The position numbers were made by a program, and so were the translations under genes. From positions 42,222,001-42,286,000 of the forward strand of contig OX597835.1 of NCBI GenBank assembly GCA_951406725.2: a stretch of DNA of 64,000 bases, written 5' to 3'. The DNA comes from Octopus vulgaris. Lineage: Eukaryota. The notes beneath the pieces are model-generated. The model was not told the origin of the DNA. It did not search any database and worked only from the letters and a program-made list of their open reading frames with translations. Positions 8,548 through 36,224 of the stretch are shown one piece after another. Numbering within the stretch: position 1 is the stretch's first letter; every line of letters begins with the position of its first letter.

Positions 8548-9689
8548 GTGAGAGGCACAAGACATTATAAATTGAAGCTGTTTAACTGAATAAAACATCT
8601 TCATGTCCCCTGGGGGTAGATACTGGTTTAAAATTTTGGTACATCATCATCATTGTTTAATGTCTGTTTTCCATGCTAGCATGGGTTGGACGGTTCGACC
8701 GGGGTCTGGGAAGCCAGGAGGCTGCGCCAGGCTCCAGTCTGATCTGGCAGTGTTTCTACAGCTGGATACCCTTCCTAACGCCAACCACTCCAAGAATGTA
8801 ATGGGTGCTTTTTACGTGCTACTGGCACAGGTGCCAGGCGAGGCTGGCATCGGCCACGATCGGTTGGTGCTTTTTACGTGCCACCGGCAGTGGTATCACA
8901 ACTACAATTTCTATTAATTTTAGGCCAGCAATTTAGGGGAAGGAACTTAGTTGGTTACCTTCAACCCCCATTGTCTTACTGGTATTATTTTATTGATCCC
9001 AAAAAGACGAAAGACAAAATCGACCTTGGTGGAATTTGAACTCAGAACATAAAGATGGAAAAAATTCTGCTAAGCATCTCCTCTGGCCTGCTAACGATTT
9101 TATGAGCTTACCACCCTTCTGGGGGTATAGGTTGAGTGTGGGTGTTGAGTGGTCAGTGGGGAAATATACACTGCGGTATATAACAAATGAATGGGTGGAG
9201 GTGACTGGAACCGTAGGGTATATAAACAGGGAGGGTGATGGGTGACAATGAGGGTGGTGGATGGTGCTGAAAGTAGTGAGTGGCATTTTGGGTGGGGGAT
9301 GGAAATTGAGGATTGGGGGTATGGTAGGGACTGTATGGTATATGAATGGGGAGGGGCTGGAACATCAGGATATAGTAATTAAAGAGGGGTGGGTGGATAT
9401 GAGCGTAGTGGGTGGGTGAAACATCAGGGTTTCAATCAGAGTGATGAGTGGTAGGAATAGCACAGAGTGGGAGCATAACATTTAATTTTGTCTTCTTACA
9501 TTCTGGGTTCAAATTCTGCTGAGGTTGACTTTGTCGTTTATCCTTCTGGGGTAAATAAAATAAAATACCATCTAAATAGTGAAGGCAATGCCATTGACTA
9601 AGCCCCACTCCCACTTAATTTTAGGCTCGGACATTGGGCAAAATGTCTTGTGGAATTTGTTACAGGTTCTTACATTCTGAGTTCAAATC

Positions 9690-10106
9690 CCTTGTCTTAT
9701 GAAGAAAGGCTGAAGACGCTCGACCTTTATTCTCTAGAAAAATGCCGCTGCCGTGGAGATCTCATTCTTGCTCACAACATCATAAGTGGAAAGTATGACC
9801 TCTCGAAAGAGCTGTTCTTCACTCCTGCTCCAGATCGTCGGCTGCGGGCTCACTCCGAAAAGCTCTATCTGCGACGATTTCATCTCAGTCGAAGGAGAGG
9901 GGCTTTCTCCGTCAAGTTTGCGGATCCGTGGAATAAGCTGCCAGACGAGATGGTGAAGATGCCGACGACCGCTTGGTTCAAAGTCTCCCTTGACCTCAAG
10001 TGGCCTGAACTCTTTACATGAACACCACCCTGTACATAACTCCATGTCCCCCTACATGACCTTGCTTTTTGCTTTTTGAGCAAAAAAATTAACTAACTAA
10101 CTAACT
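9690..10106 (+). mobile_element. 5'-truncated CR1/L2-clade LINE 3' end
   Basis: LSYEERLKTLDLYSLE..RGDLI...RLRAHSEKL...FS.....WNKLP....FK..LD is the conserved CR1-type ORF2 C-terminus. It is followed by a short UTR and an (AACT)n tail. Confidence 0.85.
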
Positions 10107-10817
10107 TTACCTTTCAATCTTTTGGGGGCCAGTAAAACAAGGTCCAAGTTGAGTTCTGGAATCAATGGTACTGACTGACCGCTCCCCACATGTTTCAGGC
10201 ATTGTGACTATGCTAAGGGTTAACTGAGTGAGGTGTGAATATCATGTTGAGGTCAGAGGGCTAACTGAGTCAGATGTATAGGGTTAACATGTAAATTAGG
10301 GAGAGAGGGTTAATTGATGAGGTGTGAATATCATGTAGGTTGAAATCAGAGGGTTAACTGGGTCAGACGTACAGAGTTAACATGTAAATTGGGGAGAGAG
10401 GGTTAACTGGATGTTTGTGGATAATATGTATAATTGGACAGAGGGTTAATTGGGTGAGATGTGTATTGATTATATGTAGACGGAGAAAGAGGGTTAACTT
10501 GGTGTGATGTGTGTTGATAATGTGAAGTTGAAACTGCTGTTGGAAGTCAGTGGTTTGAAGCAAAAATGTTGCCGTTTGGTATGGAGTCTAAAAAAGAGCA
10601 GAGTGTTGAAGTGTTGAAGTGTTCAGCACAGACTGAAGAGTGGGGGGGGGGGGGAGAAAGAAAGAGAGAAGAAATGGAGGGATATACACAGACAGCAAGT
10701 GGGAAAAGGCAAATAGAGAGAGAGAGAGAGAGAAAGTGTGAGACACACAGTAAAGGAGAGTGAGGCAGAGGAAGTGAGATGATAGAGAGAGAGAAAGACA
10801 GTAAGGCAAAAAGAGAT

Positions 10818-10849
<32 letters not shown>

Positions 10850-10938
10850 GTGAGGGGCAGAGTCTGAAATGGAATTTAATCGTTTTGTTATTCTCAGTGT
10901 TCACTTGGGGAATTTTCCTGATCCCAAAACAAAGTTTA

Positions 10939-11020
<82 letters not shown>

Positions 11021-11193
11021 CCCACAAGTTACAAGCATTTCGTATCTCATATCTTAGATTATTCTCCTTGGTTCCATTAACATCAACCTGTTTATGCTGC
11101 TGGGCTTCTTATTTTTAGGGTGTCTAAATATGGCACGTTTGGTTTCATCATCCGTGAAGTCACGTGGCGGAAAATCAATCTGTTGAATAACAG

Positions 11194-11224
<31 letters not shown>

Positions 11225-11756
11225 TCAATGTCCATTTTCCAAGCTGGCATGGATTGGACGGTTTGACAGGAACAGACAAGTCAGAAAACATACACCAAGA
11301 TCTGCTGTCTGTTTTGGTTTCCTATGGCTGGGTGCTCTTCCTAATGCCAACCACTTCACAGAGTGTAATGGGTGGTCCTTTTGAAGTGGCACCAGCACTG
11401 GGGTCAATCTAATCGACTGGCCTCCTCCCCCAAAATTTTGGGCCTTGTGCCATATAGTAGAAACGAATATAAGAGCTGTATAATTGCTACAAATTTTGAC
11501 ACAAAGCCTGAAAATTTCATGCCACAGATCCCAGTATTTATGGTATTTCATGGCATATAAGACATATTTTTGCAACAAGAATCATCATCATCATCATCAT
11601 CATCATTGTTTAACATCCATTTTCCATGTTGGCATGGGTTGGACAGTTTGACTGAGGACTAGCAAGCAGTAGGCTGCACCAGGCTCCATTCTGATCTAGC
11701 AAGGTTTCTACAGCTGGATACCTTTCCTAATGCCAACCACTCCGAGAGTGTAGTGG

Positions 11757-12308
11757 GTGGTTTTTTTGTGCCACCGGCACAGGAGCCAGTCAGGTAGGCC
11801 TGGCATCAATCATGCTCAGATAGTGCTTTTTCCATGCCACCGGCACAGGAGCCAGTCAGGTGGGCCTGGCATCAACCATGTTCAGATAGTGCTTTTTCCA
11901 TGCCACCGGCACAGGAGCCAGTCAGGTGGACCTGGCATCAACCATGTTCAGATAGTGCTTTTTATGTGCCACCGGCACGGGAGCCAGTCAGGAGGTACTG
12001 GCATTGGCCATGTTCAGATAGTGCTTTTTATGTGCCACCGGCACGGGAGCCAGTCAGGAGGTACTGGCATTGGCCATGTTCAGATAGTGCTTTTTATGTG
12101 CCACCGGCACGGGAGCCAGTCAGGAGGTACTGGCATTGGCCATGTTCAGATAGTGCTTTTTATGTGCCACCGGCACGGGAGCCAGTCAGGAGGTACTGGC
12201 ATTGGCCATGTTCAGATAGTGCTTTTTATGTGCCACCGGCACGGGAGCCAGTCAGGAGGTACTGGCATTGGCCATGTTCAGATGGTGCTTTTTACATGCC
12301 ACTGGCAG
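11757..12308. repeat. 66-bp minisatellite, 8 full units plus a partial unit, inside a family C element
   Basis: Unit starts at 11757, 11823, 11889, 11955, 12021, 12087, 12153, 12219 and 12285. Confidence 0.95.
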
Positions 12309-12366
12309 GTTTTAAAAAAATCACCTTGGGTCCCATATGTGAAGTTGGGCTTCCCATAATCTTTAT

Positions 12367-12745
12367 CCCTTTAGCATCTAGATTACTCTATTAAATGTAA
12401 CCCTTATTTATTCTCATTGTTTTGAATTAATCATGCATTACTTTTGTCGGTTTGAAATTTTGATGATGTGATTGTGTATTTTTGGAATGGCATTGTAGGG
12501 TAGGTGTGAAAGGCTGGACTTGGCCAGTTTGAACATAAAACAAGTAGAATATTTGTTCGGCTTATTTATTCACAGTGTTTTGAATTAATCATGCATTATC
12601 TCACAGCTTTGAGATTTTGATGATGTGATTGTTTATTTTTAGAATGACAATGTAGGATGTGTGTAAGCAGCCAGATCCGGCTGGTTTGAACATATAAACC
12701 AGGAGAATATTTTGGTCTGATGTGGTCAGTTTAAATGCTAAAGGG
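12367..12745. mobile_element. piggyBac-like MITE with an internal duplication; second copy at about 53380-53593
   Basis: Termini CCCTTTAGCAT...ATGCTAAAGGG, followed by TTAA on the right. Confidence 0.65.
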
Positions 12746-13643
12746 TTAATGGATTATAAGGATTTTTTCCTGAATATGTGCTGCTAAAATTTGGGTGTGT
12801 CTCATATGCTCGTGTGCCTTTTAGCCATCAAATAGGGTAACTGGTATTTTATTTTGTTAACCTTACAGAGATGAAAGTCTAAATTGACCCTGGTAGCATT
12901 TGAACCTGAAGAAATACTTCAAAGCAATTTTGTTTGTTTGTTTGTTTGTTTGTGTGTATGTGTGTGTGACCCAGGAAGATGTGGGATGAGGTGATGGAAT
13001 AAGATCTTCAGTTGTTGAGTCTCATGGAGGTGATGACAAGTGACTGAGCATTTTGGCAATTTGCTGTGCTTGAGAAGATATGTCAAATGAAATGGAATGG
13101 TAGCCATTGCCAGTGCTGGTGACATGTGAAAAGCACCTGTTCTGGTGACATGTGAAGGGCACCTGTGCTAGTAACACATATAAGACACCTATGCTGGTGA
13201 CATGTAAGAGGCACCTGTGCCACTGACATATATACGGCACATGTGCCAGTGACATGTTAAAGGCACAGGTGCCTTTAGCATGTAAAAGACACCCAGTATA
13301 CTCTGTGGAGTGGTTGGCTCTAGGAAGAGCATCCAGCTGTAGAAACCAAGCCAAAATCAGACTGGAGCCTGGCACAGCTTACCAGTTCCAGTCAAACCAT
13401 TCCACCCATTCCAGCATGAAAAACAGTTGTTAAATGATGATGAGGATGATGATGATGGTGAAAAGCAATGTATTTCATGAGAAATATGATTACAAAAGTG
13501 TTAAATTGATTTAAATTAAACTGTCCCATCAAAATTTTTTGTTACTTCAGTTTCTGAACATCAGGTTAGTTACACAAAAATTATTTTAGTATATCCTTTA
13601 TTATTTTCAAAATTAATCAGAACAAAGGCAGATTACTTCTACA

Positions 13644-13752
13644 GAAATAGGGTAACAAAAGGGTTAAAAGGTTGATAATGAAATAGGGTAACAAAAGGGT
13701 TAAAAGGTTAATAATGAAATAGGGTAACAAAAGAGTTAAAAGGTTAATAATG
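13644..13752. repeat. 36-bp tandem repeat, 3 copies
   Basis: GAAATAGGGTAACAAAAGGGTTAAAAGGTTRATAAT at 13644, 13680 and 13716. Confidence 0.9.
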
Positions 13753-14480
13753 ATGGCTTTGACTTAAAAAGAATAACTTTGCCTTTCACCCTTCTGCAGG
13801 TCTATAAAATAAGGTATCACTCAAATACTGGTATGAACTCAATCACCGAACCCTCTTTCAATCATAGTTCCAACATTGTGCCATTTAGAGAAACAGTTGT
13901 ATGAAATTCTCTTTGGAATATCAGAATCTCAGTGGACATTTATTCTTGAAGACTCTGACACTTTCTCCTTTCTAGCACAAACAGGACACGCCTATAGAAT
14001 GGTTTAGTTGTTTTGTTTAACATAATATGGCAGAATATCTCTAACATATCGGGTTTAGTATTTCACAAAGACATTATTTAGGACTAAATATAGCATTGCC
14101 GTTGCTGGGTGTTGACAGGAAAACGAAAACTGTTATTTGCGAGTCGTGATGACTTTGTGGTAGATACCATGTTTTAGGTGTTTGTGGAGACATGAGCTGA
14201 CACAAGCATCCTCTTGCTCCTCCTACTCTTGATCTAGTGGAGCATCCAGAATGTGATGGATGGAGAAAATAAGGATTGGAGGCGGAGAAGACTGGATGAA
14301 ACGAGGGCTGGAGCAAGAGAGGGCTGCTCAAATACTTGGCCTTTACTCATTAATGATTGAGTGCCTTGCTCAAGGACATAAGTGTGCTGCCTGCTCCAGG
14401 ATATGAACCCATTACCTTATGATTATGAGCAGAACATTCTAACCACTTGGCCATTTGGTATCACGGGGCAAGTGTTGTGG

Positions 14481-14517
<37 letters not shown>

Positions 14518-16732
14518 TGTGTGTCTGTGTGTGTGTGTATGTATGTATGTATGTATGTATATATCAGGAGTGTGCGGTGATCTTTCCGACTGGGGAAGCA
14601 ATGACCCAAATTTTCTGTCGCATAGATATTTGAATCAAATTGACACGTTCATATTATAGAGCTATTTTTAAAATAGAAAAAAAAACCCACAATTAAAACT
14701 TCCACGCTTTATTTAAATGTTAATCCCGTCCTTCTCCCTTTCTTGTTGAAATTGTTAAGACATCATTGTAGAACATAGTGTTCTTAATACTTGTTAAAAT
14801 GGCTTTTTCTTCTATGCCAATCAGAGCTTTATTGTTCAACCCTTCTTGTCCCTGCGAATTTCTTGTATAATTATGAATTTTCCTCAGGTATGAAAAGGAG
14901 CGCTCCTCCATAGTGCTTGTTGCTGGTAGTGTTAATATTAATTAAAAAAGTTGTTTTTTTTAAAATTAATATTAATTCATGCGTATGATTTTTCTGTGAG
15001 TTTTAGTGGTTTGGTTAAACTGTTGATTCACACACTGAAGTGTGTGCATCTATTCGCATAAGAATCTCACCTGGAGAATTTCTGGATTGTCTTACAAACC
15101 TTCTTCACTGTGCCACTAATAGACTGGATTTGAAGAATCCTTATCAGTTTCTTTTGCTGTTTCTCTGTGAAGTATGTATGTATTCATGAATGACGGAAGG
15201 AAGGATTTTTCTGTGAGTTTTATTTAAGTTTTTCTTGAGAGGGTTCAAGCCGGTCGCTAACAAAGCAGCAAAACTTCTTGAGTTAAGAGAGACTCCGGTG
15301 TTTGTAAATATCTTGTTGAGTTGGTGTGTTGGTTGAACTGCCAATGCATACATCCAAGTGTTTGCTGCTATCCACCTAAAGAATTGCAGATGGAGAATTT
15401 TTTCAGTGTCTTACAGATCTTCATTGTGCCACTAATAGAATGAATTTGGAGAATCTGCATCAGTTCCTTTTGCTGTTTCTCCTTGAAGTATGTATGTATG
15501 CATGAATGAATGAATAATTTTTCTTTGAGTTTTATTTAAGTTCTTCTTGAGTCAGTCTTCTTCAAGCCACTCGCTAACAGAGCAACAGGAAGTATGTATG
15601 TACGTGTGTGTGTGTGCATATGTATGTATGCATGTGTATGACAGGCTTCCTTACATGTTTACCTTTTTCTGTATTCACTGACAAAACACTGGTCCGTTCT
15701 TGGTTCCTGGAGAAGGCACTAACCCAAGGTGCCATGCAGCGGGACCGAACACAAGATCGCATGGTAACTAAGCAAGCCCCGTACCCACTTAGCCACGAAT
15801 AGATACAGAAATAAAAGGCAGAAAAGTAAAGCAAAACTATGATGGCTGATGACATAAAAATGGTGATTTTTTGGGGTGAATAATTGAATGAAATGTTGGA
15901 TTGTTTTGAGGTAGAATTGAGAGATTATTTGCAGTAGTTGTTAGCTTGTGAGATGGCGTTTGTTGTGTTAGTCTGGTTGTCATCAAAATGAGATGTTCTG
16001 ATTAAGGGGATAAGAAAATAATGAGATGAAGAGGCCACATCATCAGTGATGGTGAATGGAGATAGTGCTCTTGTAAATAGGGTTGGAAGGGTGAAGATAT
16101 GATGGCGAGTATTAATAGTGAAGGTGGTGGTGGTGGCAGTTGTGGTGGTGGAGGTAGTGGCTGAATGTGGTTCTGAAGATCTAACAATGAGACCATAATT
16201 CTTTGTTAAATATAATGTACTTAAGAGATATGTTTTTTTAATTTTTAATTTTATTTTATTTTAGCGGAGAATATTAATAATGCTGGAATTTACTCTAACA
16301 AGGAATCAAAATTGTATTCATTTGAAAGAAATTTATCTGTGTGTATGTGGGAGAGAGAAGGAAAGAGTGTGTGTGTGTTTAGTCTTGAAATAAACTCGTT
16401 TTGTCTAATTCTGCCCCACTTCCTCTACTTTTTGGCTCTACACCCTAACCACTATGCCAAGTTCTTTCTCCACCATAACGTTGTCCCTCTGGAATTTTCA
16501 CCTTGCCAATCATATCTCCCCTGCAGATATTGACCTGCAAATGTTTGAACCGAACATAATTAGTACAAAGCTCACCTGTCTCAGAGAGTGGCCTGCAGAA
16601 ATCATAGGCACCAACTGTTCCTTCAGGTTCAGCAAGCATAAAATAAAAACAAAAAAGGGACTTAACCTTTTTATTTACCATATTTCTAATAAAATAAAGA
16701 ATTTATTAAAATAACTTTGCCATTATATTTAT

Positions 16733-22688: not shown

Positions 22689-22771
22689 TTTGTCTGGATA
22701 AGATGTCAGGCTCCTTCCCTTCCTCTGTGTTGATGTTTCTAACGAAATCTATAATTTTAATCTTTTTTCAG

Positions 22772-24720
22772 GGATTGTCGATCCTCGAACTGGTGAAGTG
22801 ATGAGCATCAAGCAAGCAATTGCATCTGGCATTTTGAACATGACATCAGGTAAATACATAAATCCAATCACCAAGGAAGAAATGCCTCTTCTGGAAGCAG
22901 TTAAGACTGGATATGTCCAGATCAATCCGAGCGTTATCGAGGCTTTGTCAGAGCCAGGAGTTTACACCCAGTTTCAGCTTGGAGATGTCACGTATGTTGT
23001 GGACAACATCGTTGATCCTTCAACCAAGGCCAACATATCATTGAAGAGAGCCATCAGTGATAACATCATTGACTTGAACACAGGAACTTATCGTAACCCT
23101 GTGGATGGTGAAAGTATACCAGTGTCGGAAGCCGTTTCCAAAGGCTTAATTGCTATCCATCCATTGAACCCTAACATCGACAAAAACAACAACAACACAA
23201 TTTGTGTGAAAGAACTGCGAGTGAAACAAGAGCGATATATTGCAGCTCACACAGAGGCTGTGCTTTTAAATTGTGATAATGTAGATTCTTCACGTCCTGA
23301 TCCAAACGTTGCTATATATGAAAAACTCAGTAAAAAAGTTGATCTCAATTTGAAAGGAATCAAAGATCCAAACACATCAAAGTCTTTAACAATCGATGAA
23401 GCTTACCAAAAAGGCGTCTTGAACTTTGCAAAAATATCATATGATCAAATGGACGGAGAACTGATACCGTTGCCCGAGGCCACAGCCAAAGGCGTTGTAG
23501 AATCTAATGTTCTGAAAGAGATTCTCTCTGCGTATGAAGAATCCAGCGTTGGAGTGCTCATCGACAAAGGAGTATTTGATTCCGAAACAGGTTTGGTAAC
23601 TGATGTCAGTAATGGACAAACTGTATCCATTCATACTGCAGTTCAACAGGAAATTATTCATCCAGAAATGACGTATTTTTATGAAGTGCCTTCCAATCAG
23701 ATACTGAGTCTGTCAGGAGCGATCGAAAATGGCCGATATGATATAATCACAGGTAAATATGTGAAAGCCCACACGCACGAAGAAATGGATTTGAAGAAAG
23801 CCGCAGAGAAAGGGTTAATACGAACGCACATTGATCCCGAAGAAATTTCCAAAGTCTGTGAGTCGTTGAACCATCTTCGACATTACATGAACACCGATAT
23901 AAAGGGAGTGGTGATGCCAAACTCCAACGAAGTGGTCAGCATTGATGAGGCTGTCCGAGCTGGAGTTCTTGATTTGACGAAATGTCTTTATGTCAACGAG
24001 GCTCTTGGAGAGAAGATGCCATTAATCAAAGCTGTAAAATCAGAGAAAATCGAGGTGCCAGTAGCTCTTCAGTTGTTCAGTGCCTTAAATAAAATGTCTC
24101 TGTTCCAGCAGTTAATGGACAATAAAATCCACCCAGTCACCGGTTTGGTCAGTTTACCAAACTCTGCCACCACTCTAACGATCAAACAAGCTACAGAAGC
24201 CGGCTATCTTCAACCTGATCATCTATACTTTATTGATCAGACATCTGGTGAAATTGCTACGGTGGCATCGTACACAGATGAAGGAAAGTTCAATCCTGAG
24301 AATGGCACATTCTTGAACAACCAGACTGGCAAGTTTTGCACAATATCACAGGCTATTGAAGAAGGACTTATTGATGCTTCCGTCGCACCTGAAAAATACA
24401 TCGAAAATGCCCCGACGCTTCGAGAGTTGATTGACAAGCGTAAAATAAACCCAAGGAATTCCGTTTTCGTTGCACCGGAAGGTCAAGAAATCCCGTTGAG
24501 AAATGCGATGGCTGATGGCTTCCTCACGATGAATTCCAAAGTGAGGATAGATCAGAAAAATGGCTGTGTGACATTGGCATCAAACGAAGAGGTTGTGAAG
24601 GCATTGGTCCGCGTCAAAGAAAAGGCTGCATGGCTGTCGGAAGTGGAAAAATTGTTGGTTTCTCAAACAAAACCGAGCGAAAATCTGGAACATTTGAAGA
24701 AGCAACAAATTGAAACGAAG
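22772..24720 (+). CDS. MACF1: Large coding exon D (1949 nt, phase 1 to 0): plakin repeat domain and start of the spectrin rod
   Basis: Acceptor tcttttttcag, donor AAG|gtaaga. Many GIxDPxTG..(I/L)S(I/L)xxAIxxG repeats. Ends with the spectrin-like WLSEVEKLL...LEHLKKQQIETK. Confidence 0.95.
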
Positions 24721-24958
24721 GTAAGACTCGACAAAATAAAATTTTGGTTTTCTTTTCTATTTTACTTTTCGGAATTTATTGAGTTCAGAATTAATTTTTT
24801 CAAAAATATTTAAAATCACTTTTGAAGTTTTGTACATTTCATTCCATTGTGTCGTGTGTTCTGGGTCATGTGGTTGTTGTTTAGCCCTGGGTCAGCCCTG
24901 TTAAAGCAAACCTATGATCAAAGGCATTCCAGTTAGGGCTGCCCCGTCATTTCCTTCT

Positions 24959-32050: not shown

Positions 32051-32341
32051 TTATATGATATATTATATATAATATATGTATATAATATATATATATATTA
32101 TATGATATATTATATATAATATATATATATATATTATATACATATATTATATGATATATTATATATAATATATGTATATAATATATATATATATTATATG
32201 ATATATTATATATAATATATATATATATTATATACATATATATATATTATATAATATATTATATACATATATATATATTATATAATATATTATATATAAT
32301 ATATATATAATATATGTATATAATATATATATATATATATA
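31855..32341. repeat. Almost pure A/T complex (TA)n minisatellite
   Basis: About 490 bp with repeating TATTATATGATATATTATATATAATATAT units. Confidence 0.95.
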
Positions 32342-32665
32342 GTGAGAATTTACAAAAAGACAAAAGAAGAAGACGGGTGTGTAAACAACAGATGTATTAG
32401 TTTAACGCTCGGGGAGCAAGAAAGTCTTTTACGTTTCGAGCCTACGCTCTTCGACAGAAAGGAACACAGAAATAAACAGGGAGAGAAAATCGAAAAGGGT
32501 TTAGTGGCTAGCGTATACATACACACACATACATATAATACATACATACATATATAATACATACATACATATATATATAGTCAATGTATCATATATCCGA
32601 AAAAGAACCACACTTAAAAGCATAGAGCAGTACTGTGTTTGTAAGTGAAGTCTATGTCCAGTCAT

Positions 32666-32727
32666 GGAGTGACCTGTGGTTTCGCGTCCACAAAGGGCTC
32701 GGCCCCATTTACCGCTCGCCAGACTCT
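32666..32727 (-). ncRNA. Second, variant type I hammerhead motif on the opposite strand
   Basis: Minus strand reads AGAGT-CTGGCGA-GCG...(GGGC cga GCCC)...CGC-GAAA-CC aca GG-TC-ACTCC. GUC triplet; the core has an A6-to-G change. Confidence 0.5.
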
Positions 32728-32765
32728 AAAGCCGAAGAGATGAAGAGTTACATTTTCTTCGGCTT

Positions 32766-32811
32766 TAGAGTCTGACGAGACGTCCACGATGCGAAACCAT
32801 TGGTTACTCTA
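32766..32811 (+). ncRNA. Type I hammerhead ribozyme motif, sense to the host pre-mRNA
   Basis: TAGAGT-CTGACGA-G(A)CGTC cac GATGC-GAAA-CC att GG-TT-ACTCTA. Intact core, 6-bp stem I, stem II with one bulge, short stem III, GUU triplet (predicted cut after 32805). Activity untested. Confidence 0.6.
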
Positions 32812-33317
32812 TAACCAGACATAGACTTAACTACATAGAAATGAATACATACACACACACACATATATGTTTGCATTTGTGTGTGTGTGTGTGTATGTGT
32901 GTGTATGCACACACTCATATATCTTTAGAAAGTTGTTTGTCATGGCCGGGCAGAGAGCGACCATTGGTTTCTCCTCTTTAAAGAGCTTAGCTGTACAGGC
33001 GACTCGTCCGGTTCAAATGGCTGGAGGCCGGTGTGAAACTATTGATCACTCTTTCACCGGCCATAGCAACTACTCTAAACTGGCCATAACAACTACTCTA
33101 ATGTTTTAGAGCAGGCGCGGTCCCAGGAATTTTTCGAGGGGAGGACACAAGGTCAGATGGGAATACAATTTCAAGAGAAAAGGGGCGTCATAACATTATT
33201 TAGAAAGGTGCACTTCTTTTCTTAGGGGGGCGGGGAGCACGTGCCCCTCAGCTGCCCTATCCCAGGGTCTGCCTCTGTAGAGTGTGCTTCTTTTTCGGAT
33301 ATATGAATTACTGACCG

Positions 33318-33397
<80 letters not shown>

Positions 33398-34005: not shown

Positions 34006-34977
34006 TATGTCTATATGGATCTATAAGCATGCATACATACATCTGTATATTTGTATACATAAATTTCTATTTATACATACCTATGCGTATGTATGTATCT
34101 AAGCAGCAGCAGCAGCTGTAGTATGTTTCATTCCACAAAGTCTTGCATGAAAGTTGAATCAGTTTTTTTTGTTTTTGTTTTCGTTTTTGTTTTGTTTCTT
34201 ATTGTGTGTTGAGTGCGTAATTGACGATGAATGGGCCAACGTTGTTACGTGTACTGGCAGAAAGTACACCACCACCACCACCACCTTCGTTTTTAACATC
34301 ATTAACAAGAACATCAGCAACGCAACCACCACCACCTTCTACATCATTATCAACTCTAACAACAGAAACGTAATCATCATCGTCAAGAACAACAACACAC
34401 CCATATACACCACCACCACCACCACCATCATTAACATCATCATCATCACCACCACCATCATCATCACGGTCTCATCATTATCTACACGAACAATCAACAA
34501 TTATTATTACCAGCACCACCGGTACAATTTCATCATCATCATCATCATCGCTAACAACAAGTATAACGCAGTTATCATCATCATCATCGTCGTCATCATC
34601 ATCATCACAATAACAGCTGTTATGATGAATATTAAACCAGCTCACCTCTACTAACGTCTATTACGCGAATTGTAGAGCAACCTCTGTCTGTCTCCCTTTC
34701 TAATTCTTTCTCTTCTCGCCCCGGGACACAACTGTATACTGCAGGAAGGGTTACAGGTACAAAAGCAGTAGTAACACACCTGGTTATGTTTATAAGCGAT
34801 TAAAAAACCAGCCAGCCGACCGACCGACCGAGCAACTAGCCGGCCAACCCGCCAACCAACCAGCCAGACATGGTTGCCCTCCTGACAACGAACACGCAAA
34901 ACGAAATGCAGTCCCCGATTGTTGTACAAAATTCAGGTTGACTTGCTATGCTGAAAGTCAATATTAACTATTTTCAG

Positions 34978-35142
34978 ACTATTCACCAAGATCTTGAGAG
35001 AGAACAGCCAGTTGTGAAGTCGACCCTCGCCGAGGCCGAGGAAATACTAGAAGCCAGGGAGATCTCGAAGAAGGCCGAGAAGGATCAGCAATACCAAAAA
35101 CTGCGTTACAATACATCGGATTTAAAGTTCCGCTTCGGAGCC
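34978..35142 (+). CDS. MACF1: Coding exon E (phase 0-0), spectrin repeat: TIHQDLEREQPVV...DLKFRFGA
   Basis: Acceptor tattttcag, donor GCC|gtaagt. 55 codons with an amphipathic helical pattern. Confidence 0.9.
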
Positions 35143-36224
35143 GTAAGTAAATCCATCGTTTTTCTTTTTGTTTTGTTTTGTATAGTTAATGAATTTTTTT
35201 TTTAATCGATTTTTTTTACTCGTTCAAAACTGTTCTTTTTTCTATTGAAGCTGTTTAAAAAAAAAATTATGAGGGTAATCTTTCAGTTTATGATTACAAA
35301 AATGAAAGTGAAGGGAATTATTGTAAATAATCGGGATTTTAAACTTTGGAAAAAAAAAAAATTGGTTTGTTTTTACTCGGAATTGTAATTTTGCTTTTAA
35401 ACGTAGAATTCCTTAAGAATTTTTTGGGGGTGGGGTGGGGGTGGGGAGTAAAAATAAATGAATAATAAAAAAAAAAATAAAAAGTTAAAAGCAAATAGTT
35501 TGGGGTGAAGTGTGGGTTGGGTAATTTAGAATTTGAAAAACTCTTTTTGTTATTATTGAATTAAATTAAATTAATTTATTTACAGAATCTATAATCTCTG
35601 TTTTTGAAAACAGGAATCCAAAGAAATTTTTGTTTATGAAATAACAAAATGTTTTCTTTTATTTCGAGGTGGGTCGGTGCCAATTTAATATAACTGTTTG
35701 TATGTTGTCATCAAATAGTATCACTGTTTCTCATTTCCATTTTCGTGATCATAAAACGAAAGAATACCAAATCTGATAAAACTAACGATGTTCTTTGTTG
35801 ACAAAATTCTACAAAAACTTGCCATAGTAGAATCTCTTCTTCTTCATGACAATTTATTCCAAAGGCCAAACTTTTTTCTTCATTTTGTTTCCTTATATTT
35901 TATGATTCATACCAAAACATTGGAAGACGAGTTCACAATTTCAAAAAGATGTTAAACTCAACTAACATGTCTTAGATTATTATTCTTATAAAGAAGTTGT
36001 CTTGTAGCATAAAAGATGATTGTCAGTCGGTTCATCTCAGGTTGGATCCATTGCGTGTATGGCCCCCCTCCTAGTTTTACAATTCTTCGTCCCATGAGGA
36101 ACTGGTTTTTTTCTTGTAGAGGACAAGATGGCTGAATAAGGTGCTGGTTTACCATCTCGTAGGTGTTGGTTCCGTTGTCTTTGGGCAGAACGTTATATTC
36201 TACATCCGTTAACCCAACTGCTCA

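Follow-up and report, generated by a model that had tools for sequence, protein, structure and literature searches.

The closest described systems for the locus reported here are found among Penelope-like elements (PLEs) and their relatives. In PLE-related repeats of Schistosoma, hammerhead motifs occur in pairs which lie 100-700 bp apart on opposite strands, and a self-complementary helix III is the mark of dimer-type motifs (PMC4209133). Insertions of PLEs often include an inverted 5'-truncated copy, have the tail at one end and are located in a microsatellite target (PMC8557442). In vitro, a PLE protein was able to cut AT-rich DNA on both strands and to extend both of them, and its starts at internal sites account for the optional tail (PMC11167929). 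Octopus vulgaris has active Penelope-like families (PMC13282606), and animal retrozymes were proposed to be PLE derivatives (bioRxiv 10.64898/2026.07.22.740005). Both the opposite-strand hammerhead pairs (PMC4209133) and the inverted 5'-truncated PLE copies (PMC8557442) are already known.

We analyzed a window of 64,000 nucleotides (64 kb) from the genome of Octopus vulgaris, in which the initial annotation had described an intronic palindrome with a hammerhead motif on each strand. For the neighbouring exon, the best longer homologue is dystonin of Argonauta hians (83% identity). A tblastn search with this protein placed the palindrome in a dystonin-like gene on the + strand, between the upstream exon at 22762-24723 (+), which encodes plectin repeats and was assigned by protein homology to a dystonin/MACF1-like gene, and the next downstream exon at 34975-35148 (+), which bounds the intron. 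The intronic position was confirmed in this way. The + motif is sense and the motif on the - strand antisense relative to the host gene. The stretch 32641-32834 is predicted to fold into a single long hairpin (-106.6 kcal/mol, z -14.5) and none of 200 shuffles was equally stable, in agreement with the earlier description.

The right arm carries a type I motif on the + strand (32766-32811) with C3 at 32772, G12 at 32793, a 6-bp stem I, a bulged stem II, a 3-bp stem III and a GUU triplet, and the cut is predicted after 32805. This copy shows all type I features (CUGANGA, GAAA, NUH, G10.1-C11.1, their order and three stems). The left arm shows the same features on the - strand (32665-32728), except for A6G, with C3 at 32722, G12 at 32683, a GUC triplet and a predicted cut after 32671. 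A relaxed type I descriptor, set so that A6G passes, recovered exactly these two sites in 64 kb (100 shuffles: mean 0.12, maximum 1), which supports the claim of one hammerhead per strand; a stricter descriptor gave no site over the 64-kb window. GUU, the stem II bulge and the short stem III of the + copy and A6G of the - copy had been noted as caveats before, and all of them were seen again. In the left arm the motif is present, but its stem I is uninterrupted for four pairs only. The Rfam hammerhead model, proposed as a check, gave no match at the gathering score and none among the 57 matches up to E=1. The core and stem positions of the arms had been described as largely kept; the arms are identical at 23/24 positions of the inner part but only at 33/42 (79%) of the outer part. 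These 9 mismatches among the 42 outer sites and a length difference of 18 nt led us to reject a fold-back artefact of the assembly.

For characterization of the repeat to which the arms belong, contigs of 7 public runs (X1-X4, X7, X8 and X19, out of 24 listed) were surveyed, with the organism labels A to D (run X1 has label A, X4 label B, X8 label C and X7 label D). The 98-nt right arm matched 164 contigs in X1, 206 in X8 and 121 in X7. Run X4 behaved like X1 in the contig comparison, and X19 gave 0 contigs on the 98-nt right arm, which is no proof of absence. In X1 the summed depth on the 3' half was about 16,400 compared to 48.5 for the locus-specific contig, where depth is not to be read as copy number. 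The repeat family has many copies. Its 3' end is fixed, as 40, 41 and 58 contigs in X1, X2 and X4, respectively, run from 33315 into (TA)n. Run X3, which is RNA only by guess, contains one exact 162-nt contig (33021-33182, depth 3.6), and contigs of this kind cannot reveal level, strand or ends. At the other side, loose contig ends and joint letters, with X8 among the sources, indicate that the family sequence runs on upstream through the 'loop' of the hairpin and past it; the reads extend only about 30-40 letters upstream. Since the family continues through the 'loop', the right-arm copy starts at about 32736 and the left-arm copy ends at 32738, with an overlap of 3 letters. Comparison of the family upstream sequence with the window thus places the head-to-head junction at 32736-32738, where AGA is common to the 5' ends of both copies. 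The 'loop', which had been taken as the centre, consists of forward family sequence.

The element is larger than first described. According to the alignment it reaches from about 32580 to 33318 and comprises four related copies, which form two head-to-head pairs, 70 nt apart, on either side of a (CA)n/(TG)n microsatellite (32843-32904). The stem III pattern occurs 3 times in 64 kb, always inside 32672-32971 (expected 0.39). Copy 1 (32580-32738, - strand) is the left arm. It is 5'-truncated and consists of the hammerhead and a complete 3' tail up to (TA)n, the tail being recognized by its homology to 33281-33310. Besides A6G and GUC, it has a degraded 32-nt stem II and has lost the self-complementarity of the stem III loop. 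Copy 2 (32736-32841, + strand), which includes the right arm and the 'loop', was delimited by alignment and is also 5'-truncated; the core is intact, stem III is self-complementary, the triplet is GUU, stem II has an 18-nt deletion and the 3' tail is incomplete. Copy 3 (32905-33029, - strand) belongs to a second subfamily, as judged from the alignment and the letters of its relatives. Its hammerhead is degenerate (U4G and C11.1A, with a 32-nt stem II and GUC at 32959), and the last ~28 nt of the tail are missing. Copy 4 (33030-33318, + strand), delimited by alignment and loose contig ends, is truncated inside stem II and retains only the 3' half of the hammerhead, followed by a complete tail up to (TA)n. 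Hammerhead cores are damaged in three of the four copies. Copies 1 and 4 have the same tail abutting (TA)n and copies 2 and 3 have short tails; one arm per pair is complete and the other is short by ~28 nt (copy 3) or ~60 nt (copy 2). The short ends of the two pairs are not at one common site. The flanks of the element, where a target-site duplication was sought, are microsatellite.

A dimer ribozyme of copies 2 and 4 was rejected by inspection, because there are mismatches in the stem III partner and the 5' core is absent from copy 4. The tail of copy 4 contains a high-copy MITE-like insertion (33112-33277), which has short inverted ends, is flanked by TAGAG at either side, as seen in contigs and sequence, and is a later, unrelated insertion. 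Its contig depth is up to 24,500 in run X1. A near-identical contig of the locus (32918/32926-33166; X2 and X4) has 23-25 gap letters around 33126-33148, which suggests that an indel, either polymorphic or species-specific, is located close to copy 4 or to the start of the MITE. Another repeat in the same microsatellite tract (32340-32515, - strand), which recurs in part at 1257-1323, includes a minimal hammerhead-like motif at 32426-32461. This motif has U at core position 6, an extra base after A9, a palindromic ACGT and a stem I and stem II of 4 bp each; its fold is no better than that of shuffles (z -0.12). The microsatellite tract looks like an insertion hot spot.

In the relatives the stem II segment is 32 nt long, compared to 14 nt in copy 2 and 32 nt in copy 1. 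Therefore, 18 nt were lost in copy 2, and copy 1 represents the full length in a degraded form. With stem II pairs numbered from G10.1, U5-A29 and C7-G27 are found in the majority subfamily, compared to C5-G29 and U7-A27 in that of copies 3 and 4 (loose end of X3 before 33030, rows 32974-32978, copy 3). Two pairs, 5-29 and 7-27, were thus changed in a compensatory manner between the subfamilies. In the initial annotation, stem covariation among family copies was one of the signs that would tell the ribozyme reading from its alternative, an ordinary DNA-transposon terminal inverted repeat. The compensatory changes between the subfamilies argue against this alternative, but the three window copies alone gave no covariation above that of shuffles (166/500). 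Further stem II variants are A-to-G opposite U, and copy 1 (32684-32715, - strand) and relatives are rich in them. This excess may stem from drift that wobble pairing tolerates, or from A-to-I editing (by ADAR) of an RNA intermediate, fixed by reverse transcription. Stem III is self-complementary in copies 2 and 3, as in dimer-type hammerheads, and the self-duplex was calculated as -8.9 (copy 2), -8.2 (copy 3) and -3.9 kcal/mol (copy 1).

Conservation of the core in the family is mixed. No variant among the relatives reaches 2% at C3-A6, A9, A13-A15.1 and U16.1, where seed bias is possible. Changes of G12 (G12U) make up 0-2.3% of depth, and its CpG partner C11.1 is U in 4.5-12%, which is a tolerated wobble. 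G8A, which should inactivate the hammerhead, accounts for 5.7% (1 contig), 19.6% (6 contigs) and 9.5% (3 contigs) of depth, and a C3U partner is missing. Copies 1 and 3 carry GUC. Among the relatives there is no T>C row at 32805, and therefore GUU seems to prevail over GUC in the family and not to be a private defect of copy 2. The seeds of the alignment may hide GUC copies and mask variants at 32794-32834. The GUC consensus assumed before is not supported for the majority subfamily. Cleavage at GUU would be slower than at GUC. Judged from the sequence, the hammerhead is probably real at the level of the family and decayed at this locus.

The topology of type I, the dispersed copies in sequence families, the long bulged helix II (compare the D. 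virilis variant), the small palindromic helix III suited to dimers and the opposite-strand pairs at 100-700 bp all resemble the hammerheads of metazoan PLEs (PMC4209133). In contrast to the minimal PLE motifs, helix I is 6 bp long and includes a closing stem, helix III consists of 3 bp and there is no extra base between A9 and G10.1. The 6-bp helix I and the lack of an extra base after A9 are more like the motifs of retrozymes.

The hairpin had been expected to compete with the catalytic fold in the host pre-mRNA, and the folding calculations agree with this. Calculated from secondary structure only, without tertiary contacts, the active fold imposed on copy 2 as a constraint has a probability of about 1e-4 alone and 5e-32 in the hairpin, where it is disfavoured by 44 kcal/mol; the values for copy 1 are 2e-5 and 4e-30. 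In the host pre-mRNA the left arm would be made first and would pair with the right arm, and therefore the + ribozyme is predicted to be unable to fold. At this locus the ribozymes are thus predicted to show no catalysis, and cleavage is unlikely. The locus is most likely a fossil.

Joints of a minus-strand copy followed by a plus-strand copy were found at 7 other breakpoints, and each of these joints is present in two or three of the 4 runs. Six of them are among 15 joints listed of 27 (32606/32758, 32607/33278, 32613/32788, 32631/32756, 32696/32794 and 32738/32795), and the seventh, 32665/32756, comes from a separate table; one further opposite-strand joint occurs in the right-arm contig set. 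The sides of the joints are mostly 20-25 letters long with undefined middles, and two joints have 40-41 letters. At the window's own junction (32716-32741) the depth is 200-250, compared to 9,000-16,000 on the 3' half. Thus, head-to-head joining recurs in the family at variable places, and the palindrome is a junction of two family copies and not a fixed unit. The locus had been proposed to be an undescribed foldback mobile element. It is part of a mobile non-coding repeat with genuine type I hammerhead motifs, but a dedicated foldback is not supported, as the breakpoints vary among copies.

We consider it probable that the palindrome consists of two short copies of the multi-copy hammerhead repeat which were copied in trans by a PLE enzyme from two RNAs, joined head-to-head and are now silent. 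Here we infer the PLE as the mobilising enzyme, the two templates and the dimer-type cleavage. An intact family RNA would cleave as a dimer through its self-complementary stem III. The PLE enzyme would reverse-transcribe family RNAs in trans, with priming at both ends of a cut in the TA/CA microsatellite on two different RNAs, and the truncated 5' ends of both cDNAs would be joined via the 3-nt overlap as microhomology. Such a two-ended insertion would have taken place twice within the same microsatellite tract.

Several traits of PLEs were observed in the repeat. An inverted 5'-truncated copy adjoins at the 5' end with variable breakpoints (two pairs in the window and the seven other breakpoints), the target is a microsatellite and the 3' end is fixed (loose ends behind 33314/33315). 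In copy 1 the predicted cut is about 90 nt from the end of the tail, which places the hammerhead near the 3' end of the element. The inverted truncated copy and the microsatellite target are also described for insertions of EN+ PLEs (PMC8557442, PMC11167929), and the tail, which is complete in one arm of each pair, may correspond to their tail at one end only. Unlike the complex insertions of EN+ PLEs, both arms are only 100-290 nt long and non-coding. No RT/GIY-YIG frame was found in 65 of the 74 candidate frames, which were scanned at 26-42 kb. Together with the short upstream reach of the reads, this makes the link to an autonomous PLE indirect; the repeat is probably a non-autonomous PLE derivative and not itself a PLE.

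The number of templates can be judged from the differences between the arms. Over 32789-32816 they differ at 7 sites, and over 32794-32816 the right arm is without an alternative letter of the relatives at 2% or more. This one-sided divergence (7 vs 0) has p=0.016 under equal decay for the variant rows listed, with the caveat that some relatives do differ at 32790. It therefore favours two templates over a single snap-back event, in which one cDNA would have folded back at the AGA/TCT overlap and copied its own strand, so that both arms share a single template, with divergence or conversion at a later stage. The 3-nt overlap together with a short adjacent stem, a small intrinsic hairpin, would be a natural snap-back primer, and the inner 23/24 letters shared by the arms also fit such an origin. 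However, the contrast in identity between inner and outer part is not significant (p=0.08) and the inner stretch is conserved in the relatives too. We regard a snap-back as unlikely.

A smaller chance is left for a non-PLE retroelement of a LINE-type clade, of which the repeat would be the 3' end or which would be its mobiliser, with the inversion caused by twin priming or by two successive insertions. No PLE open reading frame was present in the 65 frames scanned, and in Octopus vulgaris no other repeats are as abundant as LINEs and SINEs (PMC13282606), which would suit a mobiliser of this kind. The repeat is, however, without a poly(A) tail, and it shows traits of PLEs, namely the head-to-head pairs, both 3' ends pointing outward and a type I hammerhead close to the 3' end.

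Still less probable is a dedicated foldback or MITE-like DNA element with hammerhead-derived inverted repeats that moves as a whole palindrome. The long stable hairpin would agree with it, and the complete, outward-facing tails at 32580 and 33318 resemble terminal inverted repeats. Against it, breakpoints differ among copies, and the same arms and centre were not found in many copies, as neither a listed joint nor the high depth of the 3' half covers the centre. In addition, the arms are only 79% alike in the outer part, and changes of the G.U type as well as compensatory ones suit an RNA structure.

An endogenous viroid-like or retrozyme unit had also been suggested. Like metazoan non-LTR retrozymes, the repeat is non-coding, carries a type I hammerhead and occurs in a mollusc, and it also shares with them the monomeric dispersed copies, the intronic position which is common for such copies and the proposed dependence on PLEs (PMC7229834, bioRxiv 10.64898/2026.07.22.740005). 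In contrast to these retrozymes, no head-to-tail tandem units of 170-400 nt are present at the locus or among 15 joints listed of 27. A rod-like fold with hammerheads in both polarities is shared with Avsunviroidae and viroid-like infectious circular RNAs (PMC7761336), here with both ribozymes impaired. Unlike Avsunviroidae, the locus is a junction of chromosomal multi-copy repeats with two homologous ribozymes of one family and without unit-length redundancy. The rod with a motif on each strand follows from the inversion of one family. In viral (49 loci) and metagenome (at least 120 loci) contigs, 0 of 169 listed motif matches had a stem I of at least 4 together with a stem II of at least 3 pairs, and BLAST of the listed loci gave chance matches of 14-27 letters and no relative. 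An endogenised circular RNA with ribozymes in both polarities which still forms circles is thus the least probable explanation: no head-to-tail unit was seen, the cores of three of four copies are damaged, the active fold is predicted at ~1e-30 or less in context, none of the 169 listed loci is a relative, the depth on the motif is only 6-9 in the RNA-guessed run of the same organism label, which is a weak point, and a genomic family with many copies, four organism labels and variable junctions is not a discrete unit-length replicon.

The locus adds a cephalopod hammerhead repeat family, which we did not find in any paper in a search of the literature, as opposed to the repeat libraries Repbase and Dfam; the family may already be contained in the supplements of PMC4209133 or PMC13282606. 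It also shows a clear footprint of the way in which Penelope-type enzymes seem to act on small non-coding RNAs, with copying from either side of a cut. Two questions are raised by the locus for the genome as a whole, namely whether sense intronic hammerheads are kept mainly when they are dead or when an inverted partner masks them, and whether ambisense ribozyme circles can arise from such inversions. As a distant speculation, head-to-head PLE insertion could create viroid-like rods de novo, young versions of which would release ambisense circles in cephalopods, while the inverted partner would mask intronic ribozymes. If this were true, adjacent pairs would place two cut sites of the same strand 240-290 nt apart around an antisense ribozyme, and the inverted partner would let sense-strand intronic ribozymes persist in genes.

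Some further features were observed in the window. A frame of 139 aa at 9602-10021 (+) has no Pfam match; it resembles the C terminus of the reverse transcriptase ORF of LINEs. At 11691-12350 there is a 66-nt tandem repeat of about 10 units with open frames on the + strand. The dystonin introns (4586-62768) contain several SINE-like families (D12-D19) with a length of 100-230 nt. Each family has 5-9 copies, which occur in both orientations and are a potential source of long-range dsRNA.
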